Shown one piece after another: positions 3,715-55,629 of a DNA stretch of 64,000 nt. Made by a program: the position numbers and the translations under genes. The stretch is from Alphaproteobacteria bacterium (GTDB lineage: Bacteria; Pseudomonadota; Alphaproteobacteria; UBA7887), in contig OZ241350.1 in the NCBI GenBank assembly GCA_965200095.1, positions 694,853 to 758,852 of the forward strand. Direction: 5' to 3'. Every line of letters starts with the position of its first letter. Position 1 is the stretch's first letter. Under the pieces are notes generated by a model that searched no databases, was not told where the DNA came from, and worked only from the letters and a program-made list of their open reading frames with translations.

Positions 3715-4017
3715 ATGAGTGATGTTCCGGGCGGCGGCAAACGCGGGGCGGGGCCGGTGGCCACCGTAGGCGATGCAACGGAGAGTAACCGCGTGCAAAT
3801 CAAGGTGAACGGAGTCTCCGTCACGGTCACAGAGACCGTCTTGATACGCGAAATGCTGGAAGCGGCAAAAAACGAAGGTGCTATTGAAGGGTTGGTCAAA
3901 GAGTACGCCATTGAAAGGGTCAAGGAGGAAGGGGAAATCGGGATTGAGGAAATCATCACTGTGAAGGAGTTTGAGGAATTCTTGGCCGTGCCGACAGAAC
4001 CGACTCCGGTCGCATAG
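3715..4017 (+). CDS. small beta-grasp (ThiS/MoaD/ubiquitin-like) protein with acidic C-terminal extension (putative Ubl)
   Basis: 100 aa. The core IKVNGVSVTVTETVLIREML resembles the ThiS-type hxVNGxxhxhxxxxTlxxLL start of a beta-grasp. First gene of an operon with E2-like and JAB-E1 genes. Does not end in Gly-Gly, so processing would be needed. Confidence 0.4.
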   Translation: MSDVPGGGKRGAGPVATVGDATESNRVQIKVNGVSVTVTETVLIREMLEAAKNEGAIEGLVKEYAIERVKEEGEIGIEEIITVKEFEEFLAVPTEPTPVA

Positions 4018-7010: not shown

Positions 7011-7865
7011 CTAGGCTCAGGACTCATAACCAGAATATGACGGTTGCGGCGATGCAGATGGCGCTGAAGAAGGTGTGCGCGCAGCGGTCGTATCGCGTGG
7101 CGATGCGTCGCCAGTCCTTGAGCCGACCGAACATGCGCTCAACGAGGTTGCGTTGCTTGTAAAGCCCGGCATCGCAGGCGACCGGCTTCTTGCGGTGCGC
7201 CCGTCCGGGGATGCAGGGGGCGATCCCGCGTCCCTCCAGGGCTTCGCGGAAGCGGTCGCTGTCGTAGCCCTTGTCGCCAATCGGGACATTCGCGTCCGGC
7301 GGCAAGGCGTTGAACATCATCGCGGCGCCGCGATGGTCGCTGACCTGCCCTTCGGTCAGCAGCATGATCGGGGGCTTGCCGTCGCCGTCGCAGACCGCGT
7401 GCAGTTTCGAGTTGAGGCCGCCCCGGGTGCGTCCGATACAGCGCGAAAGAGCCCCTTTTTTAGCAGACTGGCTGCGGTGCGGTGGGCCTTCAGATGGGTG
7501 GCGTCGATTATCACCGTCCCCGTTGCCCGGCCCTCCGCCGCCAGGGCCGCGAAGATGTGGTTGAACACGCCGGCCTCGCTCCACCGCACGAAGCGGTTGT
7601 AGAGGGTCTTGTGGGGACCGTATTCGGAGGGCGCGTGACGCCAGATGAGGCCGTATCGGATCACATGGATGATGCCGGAGATGACGCGCCGGTCATCGAC
7701 CCGGGGCACGCCGCGGACCTTGTTGGGCAGCAGCGGCCGGATGCGATCAAATTGGGTCTCGGAGAGCCAGAACTGGTGGTCGGACATGGTGCACCCCCTG
7801 TATCTGGTGGCAGCACACCACACATCCTAACCCAACGCAACCCCCTTTATGGGTCCTGAGCCTAG
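7011..7865 (-). mobile_element. IS5-family insertion sequence, copy 1 (IS427/IS1031-like subgroup)
   Basis: Terminal inverted repeats ggctcaggactcataa / ttatgggtcctgagcc, flanked by CTAG on both sides (4-bp TSD typical of IS5). Two overlapping transposase ORFs. Near-identical copies at 18075-18923 and 59834-60682. Confidence 0.85.
7024..7787 (-). CDS. IS5-family transposase OrfAB (programmed -1 frameshift at A6G within LLKKG)
   Basis: OrfA MSDHQFWLSETQFDRIRPLLP...HLKAHRTAASLLKKG and OrfB ...GDKGYDSDRFREALEGRGI...RNLVERMFGRLKDWRRIATRYDR (DDE) in overlapping frames. Confidence 0.8.
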
Positions 7866-7964
7866 GTACCAAACGAGTTGATCGCAACATTTGCAGGACG
7901 GCGCCCCGTCCCCTATGCTCCGCCATCGTCCGCTTCCCGGCGCGGGCTGCGAACGGAGACCGGC

Positions 7965-8708
7965 ATGGACCCGGACCTGGCAGGCTTCATCGGCCTTGCG
8001 GCATTGATGGTGACGCTCGTGGCGTGGCTGCGCGTCGACATGGGCGGACGCATGGACCGCCTCGACGAGCGCATGGGCCGCATCGAGACCACGCAGGCCG
8101 AGCACGGCGCGGCGCTGTCCGCGCACGGCGCAATGCTCTCCCAACAGGGCGAACGCCTGACGCGCATCGAGGCGACCCAGGCCGAACAGGGCGAACGCCT
8201 GACGCGCATTGAGGCGACCCAGGCCGAACAGGGCGAACGCCTGACGCGCATCGAGGCGACCCAGGCCGAACAGGGCGAACGCCTGACGCGCGTCGAGACG
8301 GCGCAAGCCGAACAGGGCGAGCGCCTGACGCGTATTGAGGCGACGCAAGCCGAACAGGGCGAACGCCTGACGCGCATCGAGACGACCCAGGCCGAACAGG
8401 GCGAACGCCTGACGCGCGTCGAGACGACCCAGGCCGAACAGGGCGAACGCCTGACGCGCGTTGAGATGGCGCAAGCCGAACAGGGCGAGCGCCTGATACG
8501 CATCGAGGCCGCGCAGAACGAGTTGCGCGAGCGTGTGGACGGAATGGACGCCGAACTGCGCGCCGAAATGCACGCCGCGCGCGCCGATCTGGCGCGCATC
8601 AACGAACGCATGGCGCGCACCGAAGGCACTGTGGCCGGGGCCCTCGGACGCCCCTTCCCCGAACTCATGACGCGCCCGGCCGACGCCGCAGCCGCAGCCG
8701 CCGAATAG
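7965..8708 (+). CDS. membrane-anchored coiled-coil protein with nine tandem 14-aa repeats (QAEQGERLTRIEAT)
   Basis: ATG 7965 (MDPDLAGFIGLAALMVTLVAWL = an N-terminal TM helix) followed by 9 x 42-bp in-frame repeats, then a coiled-coil tail. Function unknown. Confidence 0.6.
   Translation: MDPDLAGFIGLAALMVTLVAWLRVDMGGRMDRLDERMGRIETTQAEHGAALSAHGAMLSQQGERLTRIEATQAEQGERLTRIEATQAEQGERLTRIEATQAEQGERLTRVETAQAEQGERLTRIEATQAEQGERLTRIETTQAEQGERLTRVETTQAEQGERLTRVEMAQAEQGERLIRIEAAQNELRERVDGMDAELRAEMHAARADLARINERMARTEGTVAGALGRPFPELMTRPADAAAAAAE
8148..8526. repeat. 9 x 42-bp near-perfect tandem repeats, in frame within CDS 7965-8708
   Basis: Repeated unit ggcgaacgcctgacgcgcatcgaggcgacccaggccgaacag with few substitutions. 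Confidence 0.8.
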
Positions 8709-8817: not shown

Positions 8818-9196
8818 ATGGACCCGGACCTGGCAGGCTTCATCGGCCTTGCGGCGTTGATGGTGACGCTCGTGGCGTGGCTGCGCATCGACATGAACGG
8901 GCGCATGGACCGTCTCGAGACCGCACAGGGCGAGCGCCTGACGCGCATCGAGGCGACGCTGTCCGAACACGGCGCAACGCTGTCGGCGCACGGCGAACGC
9001 CTGATACGCATCGAGGCCACACAGCACGAGTTGCGCGAGCGTATGGACGGACTGGACGCCGAACTGCACGCCGCGCGGGCCGACCTGTCGCGCATCAACG
9101 AACGCATGGCGCACCGAAGGCACAGTGGCCGGGGCCCTCGGACGCCCCTTCCCGGAACTCATGACGCGCCCCGCGGACGCCGCAGCCGCCGAATAG
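8818..9196 (+). pseudogene. second tandem copy of the coiled-coil gene, contracted to 1-2 repeats and with a 3' frameshift
   Basis: Upstream region and N-terminus (MDPDLAGFIGLAALMVTLVAWL) duplicated from 7890-8000. Only 1-2 repeat units. A 1-bp difference (atggcgcgcaccgaagg versus atggcgcaccgaagg) shifts the frame, so the conserved C-terminus (TEGTVAGALGRPFPELMTRPADAAAAE) falls out of frame. Confidence 0.45.
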
Positions 9197-9403
9197 TCCC
9201 GCGCGGGGTCTGCGCGATACCTGTCCGCGACCTGCGCCATCACGCCCTCGCCTTCGAAACAGCGCCGCGTGTCCGTGGGCCGGAGTCGTCGTCAGCCCTT
9301 GCAGGTAATAGAGCGAGAGCGGCGGGTTGATGAGGAAGCCGAGCACCCCGGCGCCGACCAGATTCCAGAACGCCGCCGCCAGGAAGAATATCAGCGGCAG
9401 GTG

Positions 9404-9500
9404 ATAGCGCCGCGTCCGCCGCGTTCCTTTCCGTTCATCGCTTCCTCCCTGTCGGGCGTATGGTGGCGCAAGCCGCGCGCCGCGGCAACGGGCCGGCGAC
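9404..9500. repeat. right copy of the about 100-bp imperfect direct repeat; contains a degenerate cupin start (MNGKERGGRGA... then stop)
   Basis: See 3441-3540. The minus strand encodes only 15 aa of a cupin-like N-terminus before a stop. Confidence 0.5.
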
Positions 9501-9896
9501 CCGCGTCACGACGATGAGCGTTACCCGGGGGAACGACCGCAAGGGCCCCGCAGCGTTGCGGCAAGGCGGGGAACTGCGCCGGACGCCCGCGGATGCGACG
9601 GCGCGCCGCCTCGAAACGGTTCTTGCGGGTCGAAACGGGAATCGCCGGCGACGGCCGGCGGTCCCTGTCGGCGGGTCCCGGCATCGGACCCCCGGATATG
9701 TCGCGTCGGCGCTCCCGGAGACGATCGCAGCCGGCCCGCCGCGCCTCGGCAAGGGCCGACCCTGTCCGGACACACGCGAGACACGGCGCGTCCGGGCCCT
9801 TATCCGTGGCCGGAAGCCCGCTTGCCGCCGGGACGGGCTGCGGGGAGCGGCGAACCGGCACGTTGATCGCCAGCTGCGCTCATGGTAGCGTAGGGC

Positions 9897-9962
9897 TACC
9901 TCTTCATCGGGGCCTCTTCATCGGGGCCTCTTCATCGGGGCCTCTTCATCGGGGCCTCTTCA
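9897..9962. repeat. 14-bp tandem repeat (cctcttcatcgggg) x about 4.6 in the leader/promoter of the autotransporter gene
   Basis: Seen directly: ctacctcttcatcgggg cctcttcatcgggg cctcttcatcgggg cctcttcatcgggg cctcttca. Ends 24 nt before ATG 9986; SD GAGGAAG at 9971-9977. Confidence 0.85.
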
Positions 9963-9985
9963 GATTTGTCGAGGAAGCCCCTTTC

Positions 9986-12900
9986 ATGCCGAGAATCGAC
10001 CTTGTCATCCGTCGCATCCGCCGCGGCGGTTTCGCGGCCGCGCTCCTTGCGTCGCTTCTTCCCGCGTCCGACGGGGCGCATGCGCAAGCGGCGGCCTGCA
10101 CGCCGACGCAAACGGTCAGCGCGCAGGCGGACGCGAACGGCGTCTACACCACCACGCTGACCTGCGCGGACACTTCCGCGGCGGCGGGGGCGGCGGACTA
10201 CCGGCAGCTCCACTACAACCATGGCGCCGCATACGGGACGAACCCGGCCGACCGCGACGCGAACCTCGCGAACAACAACGCTTACAATAACCTGGCCCTC
10301 ACGATCGGGCGCGGCGTGATATTCACCGCCGACGGCTACAACGACAACAGGCTCACGGTCACGGACGGCGCCATCCTCCTGTGGAACGCCGGCGCCAAGA
10401 CCGTAACCATGGAGGACGGCGCCGTCATCAAGCTCGAACGGACGCCGGCCTACTGGACAGCGACGGATCCGGACCGCCCGATGTCCGCGACGCCCCAATA
10501 CGACCCGGCATGGTACCCGACCTGGCGGCACGCCCTGGACAACCTCGTCGGCATCGGCGCCTATTCGTATACCGGCGCGGACGGCGACGCGGACATCACG
10601 ATCGGGCACCACGGCGTCATCGACATCGACATCGACATCGGCGGCACCTACGGGAAGAACGGGTATTACGACGCCAGCGCCGGCCGCGCCATCGATGTGC
10701 AGGTAAAGGACACCGGCGGCGCCTCCGCCGCGCGCGCCGACCTCGACGTTCTCATCGAGATGGGGGCCACCGGCGTCATCCGGCATGTCGAGGGCTCCGA
10801 CGGCCTGAGCGGCATCTACGTGGAGAACTTCAGCGAGGAGGGAGACATCAGGATCGACCTGGCCGAAGGCTCGCTGATCGACGTCTCCGAAGGGGGCGGC
10901 TACGGCGTCACGGCGCTGCTTCGCAGGGACGCCGCCAACAACAACGGCCAGCGAACCGGCGACCTCATCGTCAACGCAGCCGGAACGATCAGGGCGGCCG
11001 CGAGGAGCCGGGTGCAAAGCTTCCAGCACGGCTACGGCATTTTCGCCGACCAGGGCGGACACACCGGCCGGGTTCGCGTCGTCTCGTCGGGAACCATCGA
11101 GACCGTGCAGGGCCCCGCCATCGACGCGAGGGCATGGAGAAGCACCCAGACGCACCGCGACGACCCCGACACCGCGGAGATCGAAGGGCACATCGTCGAC
11201 GTAACGGCCGGGACGATGGAGACCCGGGGGACCACCGCCGTCTACGCCTCCACCGGCAGCGCCAACTCCCACATGACGGTCCGGGTGGCGGAGGGCGCCA
11301 CCGTCCGCGCCCAGGCGCTCACGGACGAGGACTATGCGAACGGCGCCCTCACGCAGGAAACCCTGGGGGCCGACGGAAGCCCATACATCATTTCCGGCAT
11401 CTACCGCTATCACGGATGGCGGAGAGTGGACGTGGAGCAGACGACCGACAGCGGCGCGACCGTGACGGTGAAGCGGCTGGAGCCGATCATTACCGGCATC
11501 GCGGTCCGCGATTTCTCGTCGAGTCCCAACGCCGACGGCTTGAGGGACCAGGTGCTCGTCGACGGGACTGTCGAAACGGTCGGCGGCAAGGCCGGCGTGG
11601 ACCCCGCCATCTGGCTGGAGAGCGGCGGGCTGGTTACCGTCGGGGCGAACGGGCGCGTCAGCGCGGACTCCGGCATTGCGATTTCGGGCGGGTGCTTCAC
11701 CGATTACCGCAAGGTCGATTTCGTCAACATAGATTCGCCGGTCGATTGCGACACGGCAGCGCCCCGCACCCTCGAGGTGAGGGTGGCCGGGACGGTCGAA
11801 GGCGACATCCGCGTGCTCGACGACGGCGTCCTGAATTTCAGGTCGATGGAAGGCGGGACGGTCGCGGGCACGGTGCACGACCCCGCCGGCCCGCTGACGG
11901 TGGCGGGCAGCGTCGGGCGTCTGCTTTACACCGACGGCGGCGCGGTGACGGTGACAGGCACGGGGCGCCTCACCGGCGTCGACGGCGTGGCGTTGCGCAG
12001 CGAGTCGGGCGATCTGAGCCTGACCGTTGCCGACAAGGGCGTGGTTACGGGCGATGTCCAGGCGCGCGGCGGCGGCCGGCTGATGCTGGATGTGAGGGAA
12101 GGCGGGACGATTTCGGGAACGGCGCACGACCCCGTTGGCCCGTTGACGGTGGCCGGCAGCATTGGACGCCTTCTCTACACGTCCGGCGGCGCGGTGACGG
12201 TGACGGGCACGGGGCGTCTCACCGGCGTCGACGGCGTGGCGTTGCGCAGCGAGTCGGGCGATCTGAGCCTGACCGTTGCCGGCATGGGCGTGGTTGCGGG
12301 CGATGTCCAGGCGCGCGGCGGCGGCAAACTGACGCTGGATGTGAGGGAAGGCGGGACGATTTCGGGAACGGCGCACGACCCCGTTGGCCCGTTGACGGTG
12401 GCCGGCAGCATCGGGCGTCTGCTTTACACCGACGGCGGCGCGGTGACGGTGACGGGCGCGGGGCGTCTCACCGGCGTCGACGGCGTGGCGTTGCGCAGCG
12501 AGTCGGGCGATCTGAGCCTGACGGTGGCCGGCATGGGCATGGTTACGGGCGATGTCCAGGCGCGCGGGGGCGGCCGGCTGACCCTGGACCTGAAGGAAGG
12601 CGGGACGATTTCGGGGACGGTGCACGACCCCGCCGGCCCGCTGACGGTGGCCGGGAGCATCGGGCGGGTGCTCTACAGTTCGGGCGGCGCGGTGACGGTG
12701 ACGGGCGCGGGGCGCCTCACCGGCGTCGATGGCGTGGCGTTGCGCAGCGAGTCGGGCGATTTGAGCCTGACCGTTGCCGACAAGGGCATGGTGACCGGCG
12801 ATGTCCGGGCGCGCGGGGGCGGCCGGTTGACCCTGGACCTGAAGGAAGGCGGGACGATTTCGGGGACGGTGCATGACCCCGTCGGCCCGCTGACGGTGGC

Positions 12901-14737
12901 GGGCAGCATTGGACGCCTCCTCTATGCCGACGGCGCCGCGGTAACGGTGACGGACACGGGGCGCCTCACCGGCGTGGATGGCGTGGCGCTGCGCAGCGAC
13001 GCCGGCGACATCGACCTGACGGTGGCCGGCCTGGCGACGGGCGACATCGACGCGCGCGGCGACGGCGACCTGACGGTCGCGGTGTCGGGGACGGTCGACG
13101 GCGACATTTTCGGGCGCGGCGCGGGCGAACACACAGTGACGGTGGCGCGCGGCGGCGCGGTAACCGGGACCGTGGACCTCGGCGCGAGCACTGTGACGAC
13201 GGACGGCGCCGTGGGGCGGGTTCGTTTCGAGCGCGGCGGCGCGGCGACGGTAGGTTCGACGGGCCGGATTTCCGGTATCGACGGCGTCGCGGTCGACAGC
13301 CGTTCGGGCGACCTGACGGTGACGGTGGCCGGCCTGGCGATGGGCGACATCGACGGGCGCGGCGGCGGCGACCTGACGGTCATGGTGTCGGGTAGGGTCG
13401 ACGGCGATGTCTTCGGACGCGAAGCCGGCGAACACGAGGTGACGGTGGCGCGCGGCGGCGCGATAACCGGGACCGTCGACCTTGCCGGCGACGGCGCTGT
13501 GACGGTGGAGGGCATGGCGGGGAGGATTGACTTCGAGCGCGACGGCGCCGTGACGGTGGGGCCGGAGGGCCGCATCTCCGGCAGAGACGGCGTGTCGATA
13601 GAGAGCCGTTCGGGCGCCCCGGCGGTGACCATCGTGGCGTCGGCGGGCGAGTCGCTGCGCGATGCGGTGGGGCGCGTCGGCGGGGCGATCGTCGCAGCCG
13701 AGGGCGAGCCTTCGGTGATGCTCGGCCGCGAGGGCGAGACGGGGTCGATAACGCTCGGCGGGCTCGGAACGGCGCGCTCGATCCCCGAAGGCGCCTACGA
13801 TGTGGGCGTGGTGCGCACGGCGTCGGGCGCGTTGCGCGCGGTGAGCCGGCTGGCGGCGCGCACCCGCGTCTACGAGGCTCTGCCGTCGCTGCTTCTGGGG
13901 ATGGAGCGCACGGCGTCGCACGCCGACCGTGCGGCGGCGCCCCGCGCGTCGGACGGGACGTGGGCGCGCGTCGATGCGTCGCGGGGGTCGTGGGAGGCGG
14001 CGAGTTCGGCCAATGCGGGGACCGGCTACGACCGTCGCGGTTTCTCGTTCCAGGCCGGCCTGGACGCGGTCCTGAGCGAGGAGACGCGCGCGGGTCTGTC
14101 GGTCCACTGGCGCCGGGCGACGGCGGAGGTGTCGCGCAACGGCGGCGAGATCGAGGCCCGGGGCGCGGGCGTGGGTCTGTCGGCAACATGGTCTCCGGGG
14201 CCGTTCTTCGTGGACGGCCAGGCGGCGGCGACGCTCTACGATGCGGACCTGAAATCGACGCTGCGCGGGAGGCTGAAGGACGATGTCGGGGCGCAGGGCC
14301 TTTCGGCGGCGCTGGAGGCGGGGCGCACGGTTCCCGTGGCCGAGGGCGTTACGGTGACGCCGCGGGCGCGGGTGGCCTGGTCGTCGCTGTCGCTTTCGGG
14401 CTTCGTCGACGACGCGGCGGGGGCGCGGGTGTCTCTGGACCGGGGCCGGAGTTTGACCGGTCGCGCCGGGGCGCTGGCGGAGCGCGTCCTGGGCGAAGGG
14501 GGCCGCATCTTCGGCTCGGTGGATGTGGAGCGCGAGTTCTCGGCGGAGACGCGGATGTCGGTCGCGGGGACATCGCTGGAGACGGCGGGCGAGGAGACGC
14601 GCTATATGGTCGGGGTCGGCGGCGAGCATGGCTGGGAGGATGGCCGCTTCGCGCTGCGCGGCGCGCTGGACTATGCGATGTCCGGCGGCGATGCGCGCGA
14701 CTACGGTGCCCGCGCCAGCCTCTCGATGCGCTTCTGA
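9986..14737 (+). CDS. autotransporter (type Va) adhesin-like protein with repetitive passenger domain
   Basis: ATG 9986 followed by signal peptide MPRIDLVIRRIRRGGFAAALLASLLPASDGAHAQAA. Gly/Thr/Val-rich beta-helix-like passenger. C-terminal roughly 270-aa autotransporter beta-barrel ending ...YGARASLSMRF (terminal aromatic). Confidence 0.85.
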   Translation: MPRIDLVIRRIRRGGFAAALLASLLPASDGAHAQAAACTPTQTVSAQADANGVYTTTLTCADTSAAAGAADYRQLHYNHGAAYGTNPADRDANLANNNAYNNLALTIGRGVIFTADGYNDNRLTVTDGAILLWNAGAKTVTMEDGAVIKLERTPAYWTATDPDRPMSATPQYDPAWYPTWRHALDNLVGIGAYSYTGADGDADITIGHHGVIDIDIDIGGTYGKNGYYDASAGRAIDVQVKDTGGASAARADLDVLIEMGATGVIRHVEGSDGLSGIYVENFSEEGDIRIDLAEGSLIDVSEGGGYGVTALLRRDAANNNGQRTGDLIVNAAGTIRAAARSRVQSFQHGYGIFADQGGHTGRVRVVSSGTIETVQGPAIDARAWRSTQTHRDDPDTAEIEGHIVDVTAGTMETRGTTAVYASTGSANSHMTVRVAEGATVRAQALTDEDYANGALTQETLGADGSPYIISGIYRYHGWRRVDVEQTTDSGATVTVKRLEPIITGIAVRDFSSSPNADGLRDQVLVDGTVETVGGKAGVDPAIWLESGGLVTVGANGRVSADSGIAISGGCFTDYRKVDFVNIDSPVDCDTAAPRTLEVRVAGTVEGDIRVLDDGVLNFRSMEGGTVAGTVHDPAGPLTVAGSVGRLLYTDGGAVTVTGTGRLTGVDGVALRSESGDLSLTVADKGVVTGDVQARGGGRLMLDVREGGTISGTAHDPVGPLTVAGSIGRLLYTSGGAVTVTGTGRLTGVDGVALRSESGDLSLTVAGMGVVAGDVQARGGGKLTLDVREGGTISGTAHDPVGPLTVAGSIGRLLYTDGGAVTVTGAGRLTGVDGVALRSESGDLSLTVAGMGMVTGDVQARGGGRLTLDLKEGGTISGTVHDPAGPLTVAGSIGRVLYSSGGAVTVTGAGRLTGVDGVALRSESGDLSLTVADKGMVTGDVRARGGGRLTLDLKEGGTISGTVHDPVGPLTVAGSIGRLLYADGAAVTVTDTGRLTGVDGVALRSDAGDIDLTVAGLATGDIDARGDGDLTVAVSGTVDGDIFGRGAGEHTVTVARGGAVTGTVDLGASTVTTDGAVGRVRFERGGAATVGSTGRISGIDGVAVDSRSGDLTVTVAGLAMGDIDGRGGGDLTVMVSGRVDGDVFGREAGEHEVTVARGGAITGTVDLAGDGAVTVEGMAGRIDFERDGAVTVGPEGRISGRDGVSIESRSGAPAVTIVASAGESLRDAVGRVGGAIVAAEGEPSVMLGREGETGSITLGGLGTARSIPEGAYDVGVVRTASGALRAVSRLAARTRVYEALPSLLLGMERTASHADRAAAPRASDGTWARVDASRGSWEAASSANAGTGYDRRGFSFQAGLDAVLSEETRAGLSVHWRRATAEVSRNGGEIEARGAGVGLSATWSPGPFFVDGQAAATLYDADLKSTLRGRLKDDVGAQGLSAALEAGRTVPVAEGVTVTPRARVAWSSLSLSGFVDDAAGARVSLDRGRSLTGRAGALAERVLGEGGRIFGSVDVEREFSAETRMSVAGTSLETAGEETRYMVGVGGEHGWEDGRFALRGALDYAMSGGDARDYGARASLSMRF
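11852..13030. repeat. 249-bp (83-aa) tandem repeats, about 4.7 copies, inside the autotransporter passenger domain
   Basis: Unit GGTISGTAHDPVGPLTVAGSIGRLLYTDGGAVTVTGTGRLTGVDGVALRSESGDLSLTVAGMGVVTGDVQARGGGRLTLDVRE starts at 11852, 12101, 12350, 12599 and 12848. Antisense ORFs of 237 nt recur every 249 nt. Confidence 0.8.
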
Positions 14738-14937
14738 CCGCCGCCGTTGCGTCATATCCGGGGTTTCGCGTCGGCCGGCGGGCGCGCCGACCGCCATGAC
14801 GGGAACCGGCGGCGCGAAAAGGTCGACGCGGCCTGCGGCGCCTGTTCGTCGGCGGCGCCATGACGGCGGTTCGCCACGCCGTTCGCCGAAGAACCGAAAG
14901 AGTATGAGAAGCCCGGGCTAATTCTCAACGTCTGCGC

Positions 14938-16188
14938 TTATAGCCGCGTCCGTCCAGGCCAGTACGCCGAGACATCGAATTCAAACAACTCTTTTTTTGA
15001 ATTACGCTTCCGAATGGCCCTGCATTTAATATTCTCAAATTCCAAACGTTCCAGCATCGCAGCGTATATCTGCTCTACGGGCAGTAACACGTCATAAAAT
15101 TTGGAATTCCCGACAATATAATGCAATTCGGCGCTGTCGTTCAACATTGGAATCAGTGAGTTGAAGTGCTTCCACATATCCTCGATATATTTCGCTACAT
15201 AGTTCGCCAATATCTTTCCACTCTTGTTATCGCTGCGCGCTATTCCGTCCAACGCGGTATCGATCATCGGATGTCCGAACGCCCCCGGCGGACGTTCCCA
15301 GTCCCCCAACCTGCTGGTTGCAATGCCCCATGTGCCGCCTATCGCCGACCAGTCCAGCTCGCCGGCATCCCGGCTATTTTGTAGAAAACCAAGCCAGTAC
15401 ATATACGGTCGCAGCTCACGGATATACGACATCCGGTTCGCATATGGCGGAGACGTAATCACCAGATCGAAAAACCCTTCCACGCACTTCGGTAACATTC
15501 TCGCGTCCCCGAATACGACGTGGCTCATTCCCTCCGGGCTTTCTTCCGCACCTCCCAATACGACTCGCACGTCTTCGCGAAATACGTCGCCCATATCGAT
15601 CTCGAACGGGATATACAATTGATCATCATACTTAAAGGACATCGACTGGTGGTTGAAGGCCGCGTTAGACAGTGCGATCAGAGTTCTGCAGAATGCCACC
15701 AGCAGCAGATCGCGTTCCGGAGATTTCGGTTCGCTCTCCACCTCAATGCCGGCCTTGAGTTTGCAAAGAAATTCCAAAGCATCCGGACGCCACCACCTCT
15801 CGATATTGCGAATAGGAGGGGCCGCCGCGGCGCCAACCGTTCCCCGCTTTACAACTCCGATGATCCGGTCGCATGCGCTGCGAACTGCGTCTATCGCGGC
15901 TCCAGTGTATCGTGTCGTCTTCGCCCGACCGAACCAAATCAGGAACGGATTGATATCCGTTGTCACCCCTTCGTGTCCATGATACGCAGCACTTAACGCT
16001 GTTGTCGCTGTTCCGCAGAATGGGTCCAAAACTCTTAACGGCTGCTCATGCCGCTCCGTCAATTCCTCGACCATCTTGACGGAGTATGCCGGTGTGAGCC
16101 GCAGCCAGCCATGACGCCCGATGTTCGTGTTGAACTTATGCGTGTAGTCGGCTCTCTGTCGCAGCTTTTCGCCATGAACCACGCTCAT
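14938..16188 (-). CDS. DNA methyltransferase (N6-adenine/N4-cytosine amino-MTase, SPPY motif)
   Basis: 416 aa. Motif I-like VLDPFCGTATTA near the N-terminus and motif IV LVITSPPYANR in the middle. Low GC. ATGA overlap with the downstream gene. Confidence 0.8.
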   Translation of the reverse strand: MSVVHGEKLRQRADYTHKFNTNIGRHGWLRLTPAYSVKMVEELTERHEQPLRVLDPFCGTATTALSAAYHGHEGVTTDINPFLIWFGRAKTTRYTGAAIDAVRSACDRIIGVVKRGTVGAAAAPPIRNIERWWRPDALEFLCKLKAGIEVESEPKSPERDLLLVAFCRTLIALSNAAFNHQSMSFKYDDQLYIPFEIDMGDVFREDVRVVLGGAEESPEGMSHVVFGDARMLPKCVEGFFDLVITSPPYANRMSYIRELRPYMYWLGFLQNSRDAGELDWSAIGGTWGIATSRLGDWERPPGAFGHPMIDTALDGIARSDNKSGKILANYVAKYIEDMWKHFNSLIPMLNDSAELHYIVGNSKFYDVLLPVEQIYAAMLERLEFENIKCRAIRKRNSKKELFEFDVSAYWPGRTRL

Positions 16189-16874
16189 GTCGCCTCCGGA
16201 GACAAAAGAACGTTCAGAACTGTATCTATTTCTTGACGGAGAATGGATCTGTTCCGCTCAAAAAACGCCGCCAAATCATATCCAACGACGTCGCGCATGA
16301 AATCATAGGTCGATATCGAGGGATCTCCCGCACCCATGACCCCGGTGATAACCGACCATTTTTCAGAGCGATATCGCATCAATATATCCCCGTCGATTTG
16401 CCCCGACAAAATCACGGCGCAAGGGAGGTAACCCTTCGTATAAGCTGTGGCTGCGTTTGCGATATCCGCATTCTGCCGCTTGGAATCTTTGCTCTTGTAT
16501 CCCTGTCGCACTTCAAAAACCGCGCCCGTCAACCCCTCTAGAACATCATCGTCAACGTCCAGCATCTTCGCGGAGTTACGCATCCATCGATGAAACGAAT
16601 TTCGCTTGTCGTTATCACCGATTCTTTCGAGAGGAACTCGGCCGTCCATATACAATGTCCGCTTCCGGCCGCTCGTCGATGTTACCCGATACGACCAAAT
16701 CACGTCTTTCTCAGACAGCCCCAGAAAATCTTTTATGGCGCGGCGAAAGACTTTTTCGCAGCCAATCCCGATCTGGCGATAAATGCTTGTCATTCCGCCC
16801 GCTGCCCTGTGGGCGGCGTACATCATGGGATTGTCCAGGCCGAACCAGCTGTAGAAAACGTCTTTTCGATACAT
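16185..16874 (-). CDS. putative type II restriction endonuclease (partner of the MTase)
   Basis: 229-aa low-GC ORF immediately upstream of the MTase, translationally coupled (ATGA), with a good SD (AGGAG). No recognisable family. Call rests on operon context and a possible PD-(D/E)xK-like DVDDDVLEGLTGAVFEVRQGYK. Confidence 0.45.
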   Translation of the reverse strand: MYRKDVFYSWFGLDNPMMYAAHRAAGGMTSIYRQIGIGCEKVFRRAIKDFLGLSEKDVIWSYRVTSTSGRKRTLYMDGRVPLERIGDNDKRNSFHRWMRNSAKMLDVDDDVLEGLTGAVFEVRQGYKSKDSKRQNADIANAATAYTKGYLPCAVILSGQIDGDILMRYRSEKWSVITGVMGAGDPSISTYDFMRDVVGYDLAAFFERNRSILRQEIDTVLNVLLSPEAT

Positions 16875-19316: not shown

Positions 19317-20481
19317 ATGTCGGCTTCCGAGGGTTCGGGCGAGAGTTTGTGGGATGTTTTGGGCGAGATACCGGATCGCCGCGGGGCGAAGGGGCGTCGG
19401 TATTCGTTGCGTTCGGTTCTGGTTCTGACGCTTGCGGCGATGCTTTCGGGGGCCAACGACCTGCGCGCGGTGTATCGCTGGGGCCGTCGGCTGCCGGAGG
19501 ATGCGTTGTCTGTTCTGGGTCTGTCGGATGCTCCGCGCCATGCGACGTATCGCTATTTTTTCAAGGCGCTGGATGTGGAGGCGGCGGAGCGTGTGCTGGG
19601 GTCGTGGGCTTGCGGCTGCGATGCTCCGGGTCATGTTGCTCTGGACGGCAAGCGCCTGCGGAGCAGCGCGCCGGCGGGTCACGACGGGCGCAAGGGGGTT
19701 CATCTTGTGTCGGCGTTTGCCGGTCGTCCGGGGGCTGTGATTGGGCAGTTGCGGGTTGCGCCGGAGGGCAACGAGGCGACGGCGGCTCTGGCGTTGCTCA
19801 AGCGTCTGCCTCTCAAGGGTGCGGTTGTGACCGGCGATGCGGCGTTTTGCCGGCGCGCCCTGTGCGAGGCGATCCGCGACGGGGGCGGCGACTATTTGTT
19901 CGCCGTCAAGGCGAACCGGCCGGGTTCGATGTCCGACATCGCCGTTTCCTTCGGCGATGCTTTTCCCCCCTGAGCTGAACGCGGCGCTGGGCGGCGCTTC
20001 GCCGCAGGCCCTCCTGGCCGCCCCGCCGCCCGACGTCGAATATGCCGAGACCGTGGAGAAGGGCCATAGCCGCATCGAGATGCGCCGCCTTGCGCTGTCG
20101 TGCGAGGTCGTGCCCCATCGGCCGGGTGCGGCCCGGGTCTGCCGCATCGAGCGGACCTGTGAGCGCGCCGGCAAGACCTCCCGCGCGGTTTCCTGGGCGG
20201 TGACGAGCCTGCCCCGGGCCCGCGCCGGCCCGGAAGAGCTGCTCGCTCTCGTCCGCGAGCACTGGGGCATCGAAAACCGCCTCCACTACCGCCGCGATGT
20301 CGCCTTGCGCGAGGATGCGAGCCGTATCCGCGCCGGCAACGCGCCGCAGGCGCTGGCGGCGTTGCGGAACACCATGCTGCGGCTTGTGCATTCCCTGCCG
20401 GGTCCGCTTGCCGCGATCCGCGAAGCCTTCGCGGAAGACCGTCCCCACGCCATCGCCACCGCAAAATACGGGGTTCTTTGA
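19317..20481 (+). pseudogene. ISAs1-family (H-repeat-associated) transposase, split into two frames
   Basis: N-terminal ESLWDVLGEIPDRRGAKGRRYSLRSVLVLTLAAMLSGANDLRAVYRWGR and C-terminal EHWGIENRLHYRRDVALREDASRIRAGNAP are ISAs1 hallmarks. The reading frame breaks around 19840-19970. Confidence 0.7.
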
Positions 20482-20489
20482 ATTGCCCT

Positions 20490-21361
20490 GCCTTGAAGCG
20501 CCGCGCCATGCGCTGGAGCTCGGCCTGCAAGTCCTCTCCCCCTCGATATTCGTCGCGCACGACCGAAAGCGGAGCGAGCAGCTCCGCCGCAACCCGGTTG
20601 CACCAGGATTCGATCTCGTCCGTCGGCGCAGAGTCGGGGCGGCTGTCGGAAAGCGCGGTCTCTCCGAGCCAGAGATGCGCGAGCTCGTGCGCCAGCGTGA
20701 ACATTTGCGCGGCCTTCGTGTCGGCGCCGTTGACGAAAACGAGGGGGGGGGGGGGGGCGAAATCGTCGGCCAGCGCAAACCCCCGGAACTCCTCTGGATC
20801 GAGCTTGCGGCGAGTGTGGCTGCCGACGATGCCGGACACCATGACCAGGACGCCGAGCTCGTCCGCCTGCTCGATGAAGCGGCGCAACGCCTCCGTCCAG
20901 GTCCGGAGGTCGCGCCATTCCTCCAGATCGAACCCGAGCGCCCTGCGCATCCGCGCCGCGACCGTTTCGACATCGTCCGTCAAGCGGGCCGAACCGACGA
21001 ACGGCAGCGGGTCTTCCCCCTCGGAGCGGGCGAACTCCCGGTACCAGTCCTGGCGCTGCTGGCAGAAATAGATCGTGTGGAGGAGGTTCAGGCTGGGCCG
21101 GCCGACCGGCGCGCCGCCGACGGTGCGGAAATCAGGGATCGGGAACGGTTCGTCGGGCGGCTCGGACGTGAAGAAATATCCGACTCCGGCGTGCACGGTC
21201 TTCGCGAATTTCTCGAGCTGTTTGAGGGTCGGGCGAACATCGCCGTTCTCCCACTCGCGGTATCTGGGGAATTTGCGGACCAGCGCGTCCACGCTTACCC
21301 CGGCGCGCTCGCGGCCCCAGCGCAGCATCTCCGGTTTGACATCGACGCGGAAGGTGGTCAT
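20490..21361 (-). CDS. HTH + ImmA/IrrE-family (M78) metallopeptidase-like protein; 3' end probably disrupted by ISAs1
   Basis: ATG 21361 (GGGGG SD). HExxH in FTLAHELAHLWLGE. The N-terminal region resembles the HTH of IrrE-like proteins. Open frame reads through into ISAs1 with no natural stop; a possible 3' remnant lies on the minus strand at 18924-19194. Confidence 0.5.
20743..20757. repeat. G15 homopolymeric tract inside the ImmA-like coding sequence (encodes APPPPL on the minus strand)
   Basis: Counted directly: gag + 15 g + cga. Confidence 0.9.
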
Positions 21362-21690
21362 CGCCGCCCCCATTTGCGGAAATGCCGCAGCACGTCCTCG
21401 AGCCGCGCGCCATAGTCCCACTTTTCGTGAAAGGTCTCGAAGATATGGACGAGCTGCGCTTCTTTCAAGCCGTAGAGGCGGGCGGCGACGGCGTCGAGTT
21501 CGTGGATCATGTCGTCTTTCTCGTCCGCCGCGAGGGGCCCGCAATCGACCCCGACGGCCCCGGCCCAGGCGGCGAAACGGTCGTCCGGGCAAGCGAGACG
21601 CCCGGCGAGCTCGACGACGCGCCGCCATGGGGCGTCGTCGCGCCCGGGACGGGGGATCGGGAAGCAGTTGAATATGAAGTATGAGACCTC
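21358..21690 (-). pseudogene. C-terminal fragment resembling the end of Eco57I/PglX-type methyltransferases (..LDAVAARLYGLKEAQLVHIFETF..)
   Basis: Only the last 60-110 aa look protein-like; upstream it runs into the hairpin-repeat cluster. The LYGLTxEEI-type terminal motif is known from Type IIG/BREX MTases (from memory). Confidence 0.3.
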
Positions 21691-40530: not shown

Positions 40531-41406
40531 GTGAGGGCGCGGGCGAAACTGTTCCGCGCCGCGGGAAGAGGCGGCGCCGCGGACGTAAGAGCCGCGCTCA
40601 GAGCGGGCGCGAACCCGAACGCACGCCTCGACTCCGGTGTGACGCCGCTTCACGCGGCGGCGATGCAGAACGACAACCCGGCGGTTGTCGAGGCGCTGCT
40701 CGAGGGCGGCGCCGACCCGAACGCGCGCTCCGAAAGCGGCTGGACGCCGCTTCATGGAGCCGCGGCGAAGAACGCGAATCCCGCGGTCGTCGCAGCGCTG
40801 GCCGAAGCGGGGGCCGACCCGAACGCATCCTTCGAAGGCGGCTGGACGCCGCTTCATGCGGCGGTGATGAGAAACGGCGAGCCGATGATCGTGACGGCGC
40901 TGCTCAAGGCCGGGGCCGACCCGAACGCGCGCTCCGAAAACGGCTGGACGCCGCTTCATGCGGCGGTGGTGGAGAACTGCGCCCTCCCCATCATCGTCGC
41001 GTTGCTCGAATATGGCGCGAATCCGAACGCAGACGCCAAACACGGCTGGACGCCGGTTCATGCGGCGGCGGCGGAACACGCGGACCCGGAGGTCGTCTCG
41101 GCGCTGCTGGAAGCCGGCGCCGACCCGGACGTTCGGTCCGAGCAGGACGCGACGCCGGTTCATGCGGCGTCGTGGAACGACAATGCGGCGGTTGTCTCGG
41201 CGCTGCTCGAAGGCGGCGGCGACCCGAACGCACGCGCCGAGTCGGGCCTGACGCCGCTTCACGTGGCGGCGGGAAAGAACCGCAATCCGGCGGTGGCGAT
41301 GGCGCTGATTAAAGCCGGCGCCGACCCGGCGGCCCGCGACGAAGACGGCAACCTGCCCTTCGCCCCCCGCTCGCGCGACCGGAAACCGTCCGCTCGAAAA
41401 AAATAG
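40531..41406 (+). CDS. ankyrin-repeat protein (8 repeats)
   Basis: Repeated GxTPLHxAAxxNxNPAVVxALLxAGADPNAR units. Apparent GTG start; no ATG upstream in frame. Confidence 0.8.
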   Translation: MRARAKLFRAAGRGGAADVRAALRAGANPNARLDSGVTPLHAAAMQNDNPAVVEALLEGGADPNARSESGWTPLHGAAAKNANPAVVAALAEAGADPNASFEGGWTPLHAAVMRNGEPMIVTALLKAGADPNARSENGWTPLHAAVVENCALPIIVALLEYGANPNADAKHGWTPVHAAAAEHADPEVVSALLEAGADPDVRSEQDATPVHAASWNDNAAVVSALLEGGGDPNARAESGLTPLHVAAGKNRNPAVAMALIKAGADPAARDEDGNLPFAPRSRDRKPSARKK

Positions 41407-52582: not shown

Positions 52583-53539
52583 CTATCGCCGCGCCGTCGG
52601 CAACTCCGCGAGCGCAGCCGCCACGTCGGGCACGTTAAGGCGGGCGAGCGGCGAACGGCGGAGGACGCGGACGGCAGGGCCGCGGGGCGCGCTGAGGGCA
52701 GGGTTGGAAGCCGCGCCGAACAACGCAACCGTCGGGCAGCCGCAGACGGCGATGATGTGTGTCGGGCCCGTGTCGTTGCCGACTGCGCAGTGCGCGCTGC
52801 GGGCGAGAGCCGCAACCTGACCGAGGGACGTGCGGCCGCACAGGTCGATCGCCTCCGGAGCGGCGGCGGCGATTCGCGCGAGCGCGCGGCCCTCCGGCGC
52901 GGCGCCGATCAGGACAGGCGAAGTCCCCTCACGGGCGAGCGCCCGCGCCAGCGCGGCATAGTGCTCAGCTGGCCAGCGCTTCGCCGGATGGCGCCGAGAA
53001 CAGCCGGGAATCAGAAGCGCGAAACGCTCGGGCAGACGGAAATGGGAGGTCTCGCCGTCAAGCCACGAAAGACCCGGCGGCGGTGTTTCCGGGATTCCCG
53101 CCATGGCGAGCTGCTCGGCCTGGCGGTCGAGGGTGTGCATGGAGTTACGGCCCGGGTTGGCGTGAGGATGCGAGCAGCCGGCGGCGATGCCCGACCATTC
53201 GGGCGTGCGACCCGGCGGAAACAGGCGGAAATACCGCGCGGAGCGGCGCGAGGTCTGGAGATCGTACACGCGGTCGAATCCCCCCCCCCCCCCCCCCCCC
53301 GCGAGGCGTCGGCGCAGCGCGCGCCAGGCGAAGACCCGCCAGCGCCCCGGACGGTCGTCGATCCACACATCGTCGAACCAGCCGCAGCGCCGCCCCAGAG
53401 CTGCGAACAGCGGCCCGGTCAACAGCACGATATGCGCCGCCGGATGGTGCGCGCGGATGGCGGCGAAAGGCCCGGTCGCCTGCACCCAATCGCCGAGCGC
53501 GCCCAGTTTGATGACGAGAATGCGCTCGGCGGTCTTCAT
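52583..53539 (-). CDS. ADP-heptose:LPS heptosyltransferase (GT9, RfaC/RfaF family)
   Basis: N-terminus MKTAERILVIKLGALGD and C-terminus AVGNDTGPTHIIAVCGCPTVALFG are GT9 hallmarks. Confidence 0.8.
   Translation of the reverse strand: MKTAERILVIKLGALGDWVQATGPFAAIRAHHPAAHIVLLTGPLFAALGRRCGWFDDVWIDDRPGRWRVFAWRALRRRLAGGGGGGGFDRVYDLQTSRRSARYFRLFPPGRTPEWSGIAAGCSHPHANPGRNSMHTLDRQAEQLAMAGIPETPPPGLSWLDGETSHFRLPERFALLIPGCSRRHPAKRWPAEHYAALARALAREGTSPVLIGAAPEGRALARIAAAAPEAIDLCGRTSLGQVAALARSAHCAVGNDTGPTHIIAVCGCPTVALFGAASNPALSAPRGPAVRVLRRSPLARLNVPDVAAALAELPTARR
53280..53300. repeat. C21 (G21 on coding strand) homopolymeric tract inside the heptosyltransferase CDS, encoding Gly7
   Basis: Counted directly: gaatc + 21 c + gcgagg; in frame (RRLAGGGGGGGFDRV). 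Confidence 0.9.
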
Positions 53540-53556
53540 CGCAGGGCGGGAGCGCA

Positions 53557-54876
53557 TCAGAGCGGGAGGGTCATGCGGGCGCGGAGGCCGCCGAAGGGGG
53601 AAGCGGCGAGCTGGATGTCGCCGCCATGGTTGCGCACCGCGTCGCGGGCGATGGAAAGGCCGAGGCCGACGCCGCCGGTGTCGGGGTTGCGCGCCGCGTC
53701 GAGACGGAAAAAGGGCTTGAAAACCTCCTCGCGGCTCGCTTCGGGGACCCCCGGGCCGTCGTCGTCGAGGGTGAGCGCCAGCGCGCCGCCCTCGCGCGCG
53801 ACGGTCAGCTGCGCCCGGCGCCCGTAGCGCAGCGCGTTGTCGATGAGGTTGACGAGCGCGCGCTTGACGGCGCCGGCGCGCAGGGTCGGACGCAGGCCGG
53901 GCGCGCGGTTGACGAGCGCCAGCGCCGCGCCGCGCCGGCGCGCGCCGGCCAGCGCCGAGTCGATCAGCGCGTCCAGATCGGTCTCCGCCGCGGTCTCGCC
54001 GCCCTCGCCGCGGGCGAAGGCCAGATAGCCCTCGATCATGCGCTCCATGTCGCCGACATCGGCCCGCAGCTCGCGCGCCGCCTCTTCGTCCGCGATCATT
54101 TCGATCTGCAACTTCATGCGGGTCAGCGGCGTTCGCAGGTCGTGGCTCACGCCGGCGAGCATTTCCGTGCGCTGCGAAATGTGCCGCTGGATGCGTTCGC
54201 GCATTTGCAGGAAGGCGCGCGCCGCCTGCCGCGCCTCGCGCGCGCCGCGCGGCTTGAAGTCCGCCGCCGGGATGCCCTTGCCGAAACTCTCCGCCGCGCG
54301 CGCCAGACCGATGATCGGCGCGACCTGCCCGCGCAGGAAATAGACCGCCGCCGCCAGCAGCACCAGCGATGTCCCCGCCATCCAGCCGATGAACACGTAA
54401 ACCGTCGAGCTGAACAGGCGCTTGCGCGGCGTCGCCGCCTCCAAAACGCCCGACGGCAATTCGACGGAAATGAACACCGTGCCCGGTTCGCGGCGCGTGT
54501 CGAAACGGACGGGGCGGTGGATAAGTTCCGGCAGCACCCGCGCCAGGGTCCAGTCGACGGGGCCGAAATGCGGGTGTGCCGGCGGTCCGTCCGCCAGCCG
54601 CGCGCCCGGACGGAAGACGGCGTCGATTTTGAGGCTCCGCCGCGCCCGGTCGATCAGCCAGAGCGGGTCCACCGCGGCGCCCCGCGCCGCCACGGCGTCG
54701 GCCAGCACCGCGATGTCGCCGGCGACCGACTGCGCGAGCCGGCGACCCACATCCTCCCAGAGGCGGTCGTAGAAGACGAAGGCGGACACCGCCTGCACGA
54801 CCGCCAGCGGGACCACGACGATGAGCAGCGACCGCCCGAACAGTCCGCGCGGCAGGAAGGCGCGCGGACCTTTCAC
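53557..54876 (-). CDS. sensor histidine kinase (EnvZ/PhoQ-type, two TM helices)
   Basis: GTG start with GGGGAGG SD. H-box GVSHDLRTPL; N, G1, G2 boxes (DDGPGVP, GGVGLGLSI). Confidence 0.85.
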   Translation of the reverse strand: MKGPRAFLPRGLFGRSLLIVVVPLAVVQAVSAFVFYDRLWEDVGRRLAQSVAGDIAVLADAVAARGAAVDPLWLIDRARRSLKIDAVFRPGARLADGPPAHPHFGPVDWTLARVLPELIHRPVRFDTRREPGTVFISVELPSGVLEAATPRKRLFSSTVYVFIGWMAGTSLVLLAAAVYFLRGQVAPIIGLARAAESFGKGIPAADFKPRGAREARQAARAFLQMRERIQRHISQRTEMLAGVSHDLRTPLTRMKLQIEMIADEEAARELRADVGDMERMIEGYLAFARGEGGETAAETDLDALIDSALAGARRRGAALALVNRAPGLRPTLRAGAVKRALVNLIDNALRYGRRAQLTVAREGGALALTLDDDGPGVPEASREEVFKPFFRLDAARNPDTGGVGLGLSIARDAVRNHGGDIQLAASPFGGLRARMTLPL

Positions 54877-54915
54877 CGCTCGCCTCCCCGCGCCCGCCGG
54901 CGGCGGTCGCCGCGG

Positions 54916-55629
54916 TCACTGCGCGGCGCGCAGGACATATCCGGTGCCGCGCACCGTGGCGATGCAGCCCGGCGCGCGCGGGTCGGGTTCGATTTTGCGC
55001 CGCAGGCGGGCGACGCCGACATCGATCGAACGCTCGGCGACGCCGGTCTCGGCGCTCAGGGCGGCGCGCGTCACCGCTTCTCCCGCCCGTGCGGCGAGGG
55101 CGCGCAACAATCCCGTCTCGGTGACGCCGAGCGCCACCTCGGCGCCGTCGCGCGTCAGGCGCCCGCTAGCCGGGTCGAAGACGAAGGCGCCGAACCGCAC
55201 GCGCCGCCCCGGCCGGTCGCGGCCCGAGCGTCGCAGGATGGCGCGCAGCCGCAACGCCAGTTCGCGCGGCTCGAAGGGCTTGGCGAGATAGTCGTCGACG
55301 CCGCTTTCCAGTCCGGCGACGCGCTCGTCGGGCGCGTCCATCGCGCTCAGCATGAGGATCGGCAGGTCGCCGTCGCGGCGCAGCGAGCGGGCGAAGCGCG
55401 TGCCCGTCTCCCCCGGCATCATCACGTCGAGGACCATGACATCGAAGGCGAGGCTTGCGAGCCGGGCGCGCGCATCGGCGGCCGAGGACGCGGTCGCCAC
55501 CAGGAAGCCGTTGTCGCCGAGATAGCGGCTCAGCAGCCGCCGCAGCCTCGCGTCGTCGTCGACGACGAGGACGTGCGGGCGCGCCTCGGGGGGAAGCGCC
55601 CCGGGCGGCGCGGTTGCGGGCGCCGCCAC
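54916..55629 (-). CDS. OmpR-family response regulator
   Basis: Receiver (VLVVDDD...LDVMMPGETG) plus a winged-helix C-terminus (...IATVRGTGYVL). Start inferred as GTG 55629; uncertain. Confidence 0.75.
   Translation of the reverse strand: MAAPATAPPGALPPEARPHVLVVDDDARLRRLLSRYLGDNGFLVATASSAADARARLASLAFDVMVLDVMMPGETGTRFARSLRRDGDLPILMLSAMDAPDERVAGLESGVDDYLAKPFEPRELALRLRAILRRSGRDRPGRRVRFGAFVFDPASGRLTRDGAEVALGVTETGLLRALAARAGEAVTRAALSAETGVAERSIDVGVARLRRKIEPDPRAPGCIATVRGTGYVLRAAQ

Follow-up and report, generated by a model that had tools for sequence, protein, structure and literature searches.

What is a perfect tandem repeat with a 14-bp unit doing immediately in front of an autotransporter gene, and could changes in its copy number alter what the cell displays on its surface? 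The question is raised by a short array in the window, the term by which we refer to the whole 64,000-nt stretch of DNA analysed here. The answer towards which we lean, with rather more confidence than doubt, is that the array is a hypermutable minisatellite situated in a transcribed 5' leader, where it probably tunes the expression of the surface autotransporter. The argument turns on the following features of the window:

9863..9891, forward strand: putative sigma70-type promoter, read by eye (-35 TTGATC at 9863-9868, 17-nt spacer, TG at 9883-9884, -10 TAGCGT at 9886-9891)
9899..9962, forward strand: tandem array of period 14, 4.6 copies, 100 % matches and no indels, consensus CCTCTTCATCGGGG (Tandem Repeats Finder, TRF)
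9951..9981, forward strand: predicted RBS-sequestering hairpin, in which the last GGGG and the partial unit (GGGGCCTCTTCA) pair with GAGGAAGCCCC; the 12-bp stem appears in the MFE and centroid structures and covers GAGGA
9971..9977, forward strand: Shine-Dalgarno-like GAGGAAG, read from the sequence, 8 nt before the ATG
9986..14737, forward strand: classical (type Va) autotransporter gene encoding 1583 aa, identified from its translation, Pfam, GC3 periodicity and orthologues that are 65-69 % identical
11848..12999, forward strand: in-frame 249-bp (83-aa) repeat present 4.6 times in the passenger domain (TRF, 89 % matches; peptide blocks visible in the translation)

Four full units (9899-9954) and a partial one, CCTCTTCA (9955-9962), make up the array. 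The sequence 3' of it reads GATTTGTC-GAGGAAG-CCCCTTTC-ATG, with 23 nt between the end of the array and the ATG at 9986. The first-pass annotation had reported the same unit, copy number and end at 9962, all of which hold, while the start that it gave, 9897, is 2 nt early compared with the 9899 returned by TRF. Shuffling gave a chance expectation for the 14-mer of 0.63 occurrences per 64 kb at up to 2 mismatches; the window contains four exact copies, all of them in the array and placed head to tail, which is far beyond chance. One hallmark of SSR contingency loci is a perfect tandem repeat located in a promoter, a leader or the 5' part of a coding region, and the window array is such a repeat.

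The gene that follows had been read as an autotransporter, and this was borne out by a PF03797 beta-domain at residues 1326-1558 (E = 1.1e-32), which provides the C-terminal 12-strand beta-barrel translocator of the type Va class. The N-terminus, MPRIDLVIRRIRRGGFAAALLASLLPASDGAHA, resembles a signal peptide when the translation is read by eye, with a basic n-region, a hydrophobic core and AHA-Q. That the genes concerned encode surface or host-interaction determinants is indicated by PF03797 here and by TbpB_B_D lipoproteins at the sister loci described below, one of them with an adjacent Slam gene. Through the 249-bp repeat of the passenger domain, too, the autotransporter gene might vary in length. 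Look-ups of the exact protein for three window proteins (the autotransporter from 9986, the same from 9593, and the ORF 8818-9330) found none on record.

Relatives of the passenger domain comprised 11 proteins, the best of them 69 % identical. The orthologue loci include two from complete Alphaproteobacteria MAG chromosomes, L001 (OZ241738.1) and L002 (OZ241357.1), and five more from ENA metagenome assemblies. Their 5' tracts are given below; the exact homopolymer lengths are unreliable because several of the assemblies have only 3.6-8x long-read coverage, but the presence of the tracts, unlike their lengths, is not in doubt:

L001: G18 at 3931-3948, ending 1 nt before the start codon
L002: G6, ending 1 nt before the start codon
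L003: G47 at 3953-3999, ending 1 nt before the start codon
L004: no tract
L012: C14 at about 2899-2912, 89 nt upstream of the start
L013: G13 just before 3001, ending 1 nt before the start codon
L014: G22 just before 3001, ending 1 nt before the start codon

A repeat tract thus lies no more than 100 nt from the start in 6/7 orthologues, as it does in the window gene. L001 also has an ATG farther upstream whose frame continues through the G18 tract into the signal peptide. L002 carries, at the position equivalent to that of the window array, GGGGCCTCTTCAC repeated 27.3 times, 100 % perfect over 355 bp. This array ends in ...cctcttcGATTTGaCGAacGAGGgtcccgATG / ...cctcttcGATTTGaCGA..., compared with cctcttcaGATTTGtCGA... 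in the window and, judging from the two sequences side by side, clearly occupies the same junction. An ATG right after the 13-bp array of L002 (3894-4018) is in frame, via 42 codons and the G6, with the MKTSIRS... signal peptide, and the leader cassette of this locus may have been placed upstream of an older 5' end of the poly-G type.

The unit is also found well beyond this gene. A motif scan for GGGGCCTCTTCA-N(1-2)-GGGGCCTCTTCA over JGI/NCBI metagenome contigs matched seven contigs, five of which share one architecture: sigma70-like hexamers, 7-14 nt, the array, a short junction, an RBS and an ATG. The RBS in this arrangement is purine-rich and then C-rich (GGAGGGAGGCCCC, GGGAGGGAGGCTCC or GGGGAGGAGGCTCC). 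Membership of the remaining two is doubtful: L008 has CCTCTTCAGCGGGG three times at a contig end with no SD-ATG nearby, and L010 has 2 units in low-G+C flanks. The genes downstream of the array were identified as follows:

L005: TbpB_B_D lipoprotein
L006: DUF4189 secreted protein
L009: TbpB_B_D lipoprotein
L011: 970-aa lipoprotein of the TbpB_B_D kind, with a weaker Pfam hit

In L018, a close relative of L009, a Slam gene (PF04575) comes after the lipoprotein gene; Slam is the expected partner of surface-exposed lipoproteins. The gene classes that follow the module are thus autotransporters, Slam-type TbpB-like lipoproteins and one DUF4189 protein. Promoter-leader modules with the unit GGGGCCTCTTCA plus 1-2 nt therefore appear to form a family 5' of surface- and secreted-protein genes in sponge-associated bacteria. 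Two TbpB-like loci that are 54-55 % identical to L011 (L016 and L017) have no array, so that the cassette does not invariably accompany this protein family. The metagenomes LXNI and MKWU were obtained from the sponges Sarcotragus foetidus and Aplysina aerophoba (PMC5099237). A protein identical to that of L009 is annotated in a MAG labelled Gemmatimonadetes; spread across phyla is only a possibility, because the binning of the 5.6-kb contig may be wrong. Scanning viral contigs for the unit produced no match, Rfam at a permissive threshold returned chance-level hits only, and a full-text literature search for the unit sequence retrieved only unrelated eukaryotic matches, none in a bacterial context.

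The flanks of the sister loci are rich in transposases and recombinases, as are those of the window array, where an IS4/IS5-family transposase, whose DUF4096 and DDE parts fall, in this order, in two overlapping ORFs (7024-7823, minus strand), lies about 2 kb upstream. A fragment that reads by eye like the N-terminus of a similar transposase is found just upstream of the orthologue in L003. Between the transposase and the array, the ORF 7878-8708 (plus strand) contains a 42-bp in-frame repeat (8143-8509, 8.7 copies) encoding the 14-aa unit QGERLTRIEATQAE. Its product is a small membrane-anchored coiled-coil-like protein with weak DUF16 and XhlA matches, and a shorter, apparently frameshifted paralogue (8818-9330) follows it directly. 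Directly 3' of the autotransporter gene there is a low-G+C stretch (14900-16200, 42-55 %) with a DNA-methyltransferase-like ORF, and an ankyrin-repeat protein is encoded at 40531-41406 (102-bp period; Ank_2, E = 2.7e-74). Ankyrin-repeat proteins and low-G+C methyltransferase stretches are typical of sponge-symbiont genomes and islands. Two long homopolymers are present elsewhere in the window. C21 at 53280-53300 (G21 on the coding strand) falls within an intact ORF of 778 aa (52583-54919, minus strand), shortly before the Glyco_transf_9 heptosyltransferase domain at residues 545-748, a layout that would be classic for a frameshift-type phase-variable LPS-core gene. G15 at 20743-20757 (C15 on the coding strand) falls within an intact ORF of 578 aa (19892-21628, minus strand), where a Peptidase_M78/IrrE-like domain begins, and makes this ORF another candidate frameshift switch.

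Is the array transcribed, and if so, is it translated? The promoter read by eye would place the start of transcription near A9898, one base 5' of the array. A consensus promoter scan called no promoter in the window, and the window promoter, with its -10 TAGCGT, is weak when taken alone; it gains weight from the alignment of the sister loci. Hexamers were found at matching positions 5' of the array in L002, L009, L006, L007 and L011, and in six loci the promoter-like hexamers end 7-14 nt 5' of the first unit. The promoter of L002 (TTGACG/18/TAAAGT) is called by the consensus scanner. That of L009 (TTGACA-17-TATAAG) received no call in the same scan, because TATAAG breaks the position-6 rule of the scanner. 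Provided that the eye-read promoter is real, the array is probably a transcribed 5' leader.

GC content by codon phase is flat (0.63-0.80) across 9300-10049; strong periodicity (about 0.9 / 0.6 / 0.5) sets in only at about 10050. We therefore consider the array to be non-coding, despite a stop-free frame that extends back to an ATG at 9593. Together with the hexamers at 9863-9891 and the SD at 9971-9977, this flat GC phase agrees with the earlier suggestion that the repeat sits between a plausible promoter and the RBS in non-coding DNA. The stop-free frame, which runs from 9593 through the array into the gene, could also be taken to indicate a frameshift switch, in which translation from ATG 9593 would proceed through the array and 14-bp steps would shift the autotransporter frame; the in-frame ATGs of L002 (through G6) and L001 (an upstream ATG, through G18) could be cited to the same effect. 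Stop-free frames are common at 70 % G+C, however, coding periodicity is absent from 9300-9985, the RBS and an ATG directly followed by a signal peptide come after the array, and the arrays of the sister loci directly follow a promoter. A frameshift switch operating through this array thus appears extremely improbable, and the class of intragenic frameshift SSRs was rejected for the window on account of the missing coding periodicity and the position of the RBS and ATG. The class of promoter-spacer SSRs was rejected as well: a -35/-10 spacer measures 16-18 bp, whereas the array measures 64 bp here and 355 bp in L002, and it lies downstream of the inferred -10. SSRs located between -35 and -10 are represented by fim, opc and porA.

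Length differences between close relatives were observed directly at two sister loci. L011 (JGI) and L015 (ENA) show 100 % identity across the 597 bp on the upstream side of the array and the 4476 bp on its downstream side (5073 bp), and their sole difference is a 39-bp, 3-unit indel in the array, which leaves 5 units in the former and 2 in the latter. L009 and L018, which share 99.886 % identity across 3495 bp (4 SNPs), contain 7 vs at least 9 units, the count for L018 being a lower bound as its contig starts inside the array. Assembly collapse is unlikely, because both arrays are shorter than typical reads. At these two loci, arrays of the GGGGCCTCTTCA-type unit alter their length faster than point mutations accumulate. 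The window array very probably belongs to this hypervariable family of leader repeats, and with only 4.6 copies it may itself be fairly stable.

How could the number of units in a leader influence expression? The unit is complementary to the flank of the RBS. The predicted pairing arms in the window are GGGGCCUCUUC:GAGGAAGCCCC, and the duplex between the window unit and the SD flank was computed at -18.2 kcal/mol, compared with -8.1 +/- 2.7 for shuffled flanks (p = 0.004). Across the six complete loci the duplex ranged from -15.5 to -22.1 kcal/mol, vs about -8 to -10.5 with shuffled flanks, with p <= 0.004 in 5/6 loci and 0.029 in L002. In all six, the last unit is complementary to the RBS flank over 11-12 bp. 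RNAalifold on the six loci produced an 11-bp consensus helix in which the substitutions are mostly G-C to G-U and one pair is changed on both sides; this conservation is not independent evidence, because the six loci probably share ancestry. The complementarity of the unit to the RBS is in itself a solid fact of the sequence.

The folding of the leader as a whole is ordinary. Adjacent-unit self-pairing was no better than that of permuted units (z = -0.2 to -1.2), and the leader MFE did not stand out from dinucleotide shuffles (z = -1.17 and -0.47). A special self-complementarity of the unit was rejected on these grounds, since permuted units fold about as well and the leader z-scores are ordinary. 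A G-quadruplex was also considered and rejected: four G4 runs with 10-nt loops are present, yet the structure is unfavoured in G4-aware folding.

Unexceptional global RNA folding, and the location of the loci in transposase-rich regions, would suit a selectively neutral minisatellite that mutates by slippage, travels as a passenger on a mobile promoter fragment and leaves expression unaffected. Such a neutral passenger would not be expected to maintain an identical order of -10 hexamer, array and SD in every complete locus, nor to be restricted to genes for secreted and surface proteins. It also fits poorly with the significant RBS complementarity and with the orthologous autotransporters that independently carry other 5' repeat tracts. 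We consider neutrality quite unlikely.

The near invariance of the unit suggests another alternative. The unit hardly changes across unrelated genes and across contigs of 58-70 % G+C, its variation being concentrated in 1-2 nt (CAC, CATC, CAGC), which is what one would expect of a recognition motif. The units might then be recognised by a factor acting in trans, such as a small RNA or a regulator that binds DNA or RNA, with the copy number setting the amount bound and the RBS complementarity being secondary; an idea of this kind has been put forward for the TAACTGA leader repeats of Beggiatoaceae (PMC4679880). This remains unlikely in our view, since no conserved regulator gene is found beside the loci, whose flanks contain transposases, recombinases and helicases that differ from one locus to another, since Rfam has no match, and since the significant complementarity to the RBS flank would be left unexplained.

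Copy number could also act on transcription or its elongation, if a two-unit hairpin followed by a U-rich run formed a terminator or attenuator, or if long arrays impeded RNA polymerase. In L002, the last two units and TTCGATTT were flagged as terminator-like by a scanner, the window has a similar tail, UUCAGAUUUGU, and the hmw transcript level of Haemophilus influenzae drops with more repeats (PMC12721329). Yet the window and L009 gave no terminator-like call, the tails of L005, L006, L009 and L011 are not U-rich, and G4-aware folding does not favour a G-quadruplex. Taken together, these observations make an attenuator, or an obstacle to the polymerase, very unlikely.

We thus return to an array that would act as a leader RNA on the translation of the autotransporter. 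According to this proposal, 14-bp units would be gained and lost by replication slippage, and transcription from about 9898 would turn the array into an RNA leader. The last unit would pair with GAGGAAGCCCC and hide the RBS, while neighbouring units would pair weakly with one another by G-U wobble, so that the number of units would set the ease with which the RBS opens. The result would be a heritable but reversible change in autotransporter translation, mRNA stability or both. The first-pass annotation had proposed a slipped-strand phase-variation arrangement in which copy number alters the spacing between promoter and RBS. It was right in kind, but spacing as such is not the likely lever. 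Leader-RNA structure, as modelled by folding, is the more likely one, given that the repeat probably forms part of the transcript and that its units show complementarity to the RBS.

The weak pairing between neighbouring units leads to a further prediction. GGGGCCUC is quasi-self-complementary through G-U pairs; neighbouring units can pair through it, and consequently the computed cost of opening the RBS-to-AUG region alternates with the number of units. For the window, even unit numbers give a predicted cost of about 6.7 kcal/mol and odd ones a cost of about 13.6; in silico, L002, L005 and L009 show a comparable alternation, L006 and L011 a weak one. One may thus imagine a parity switch, in which even numbers of units would pair among themselves and leave the RBS free, an odd number would leave one unit to sequester the RBS, and slippage by one unit would toggle translation. 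This switch, derived from folding models, is only a hypothesis, and the persistence of the predicted RBS hairpin in the MFE structure of the window at the actual n = 4 counts against it. In its widest form, it is tempting to speculate that GGGGCCTCTTCA(N1-2) marks a portable cassette consisting of a promoter, an anti-Shine-Dalgarno minisatellite and an RBS hairpin, which would probably be shared horizontally among sponge-symbiont lineages (Alphaproteobacteria and the Gemmatimonadetes-labelled bin), be attached to several classes of surface-protein genes, and work as a parity switch. We regard this combined proposal as doubtful; if true, it would add a new RNA-level logic to phase variation and would be the first contingency-locus system reported from sponge symbionts.

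To our knowledge, almost all known cases in which repeats switch surface proteins come from a few human pathogens, and the units involved nearly always measure 1-7 nt. Here, a 13-14 nt unit recurs, conserved in sequence, before autotransporters and Slam-type lipoproteins in uncultured bacteria of marine sponges. If the array controls expression, the surface of sponge symbionts would change stochastically, perhaps as a defence against recognition by phage or host. The complementarity of the unit to the RBS offers a simple and testable RNA mechanism, near that recently shown for the hmw leader, and metagenomes can readily be searched with the motif for candidate contingency genes.

By analogy, the closest system in logic is the 5'-UTR heptamer of H. 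influenzae hmw1A/hmw2A (PMC12721329; PMC8262952; PMC2424069). There, the (ATCTTTC)n tract is part of the transcribed 5' UTR, where it base-pairs with a G-rich region; RNase III processes it, and expression is inversely related to copy number (PMC12721329). Both systems have a pyrimidine-rich tandem repeat upstream of a large secreted adhesin gene. In both, the repeat is a leader (shown for hmw, inferred here) whose units pair with a downstream purine- or G-rich stretch (predicted here), and copy number differs among close relatives (here at the sister loci). The element of the window is an analogue of the hmw type and not a member of it by sequence, its unit being CCTCTTCATCGGGG and not ATCTTTC. 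Its unit of 13-14 nt is unrelated in sequence and has a G4 block of its own, and its predicted partner is the RBS itself, bound over 11-12 bp by one unit, whereas hmw forms a 10-repeat hairpin with a separate G-rich arm. Further differences are that HMW is a two-partner-secretion protein and not an autotransporter, and that the host here is an uncultured high-G+C alphaproteobacterium.

The remaining parallels are looser. The G(n) and AGAT(n) repeats of Moraxella catarrhalis uspA1 and uspA2 are likewise non-coding and upstream of autotransporter-family adhesin genes; they lie 29-132 bp upstream and give graded expression, with an effect measured at the mRNA level (PMC7302503). The poly-G tracts of L001, L003, L013 and L014 resemble that of uspA1. 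Unlike the present case, the UspA proteins are trimeric autotransporters, the units have 1 or 4 nt, and no RBS complementarity is described there. The TAAA repeat of Neisseria meningitidis nadA (PMC2791445) also precedes an adhesin gene and modulates expression without a change of frame, but it lies upstream of the promoter and shifts the spacing of NadR and other distal promoter elements, whereas the window array is downstream of the inferred -10. The TAACTGA repeats of marine Beggiatoaceae, Cyanobacteria and Bacteroidetes, for which a post-transcriptional role was proposed (PMC4679880), share with our element the use of one short unit, in tandem, just upstream of many start codons and in distant lineages. 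They differ in being a heptamer without gene-function bias, for which neither copy-number polymorphism between near-identical loci nor RBS complementarity is reported. As judged by sequence, the window element is thus not a member of the hmw, uspA, nadA or TAACTGA systems; it is distinguished from them by the 13-14 nt length of its unit, by the RBS as predicted pairing partner, by its reuse across gene classes and by its hosts.
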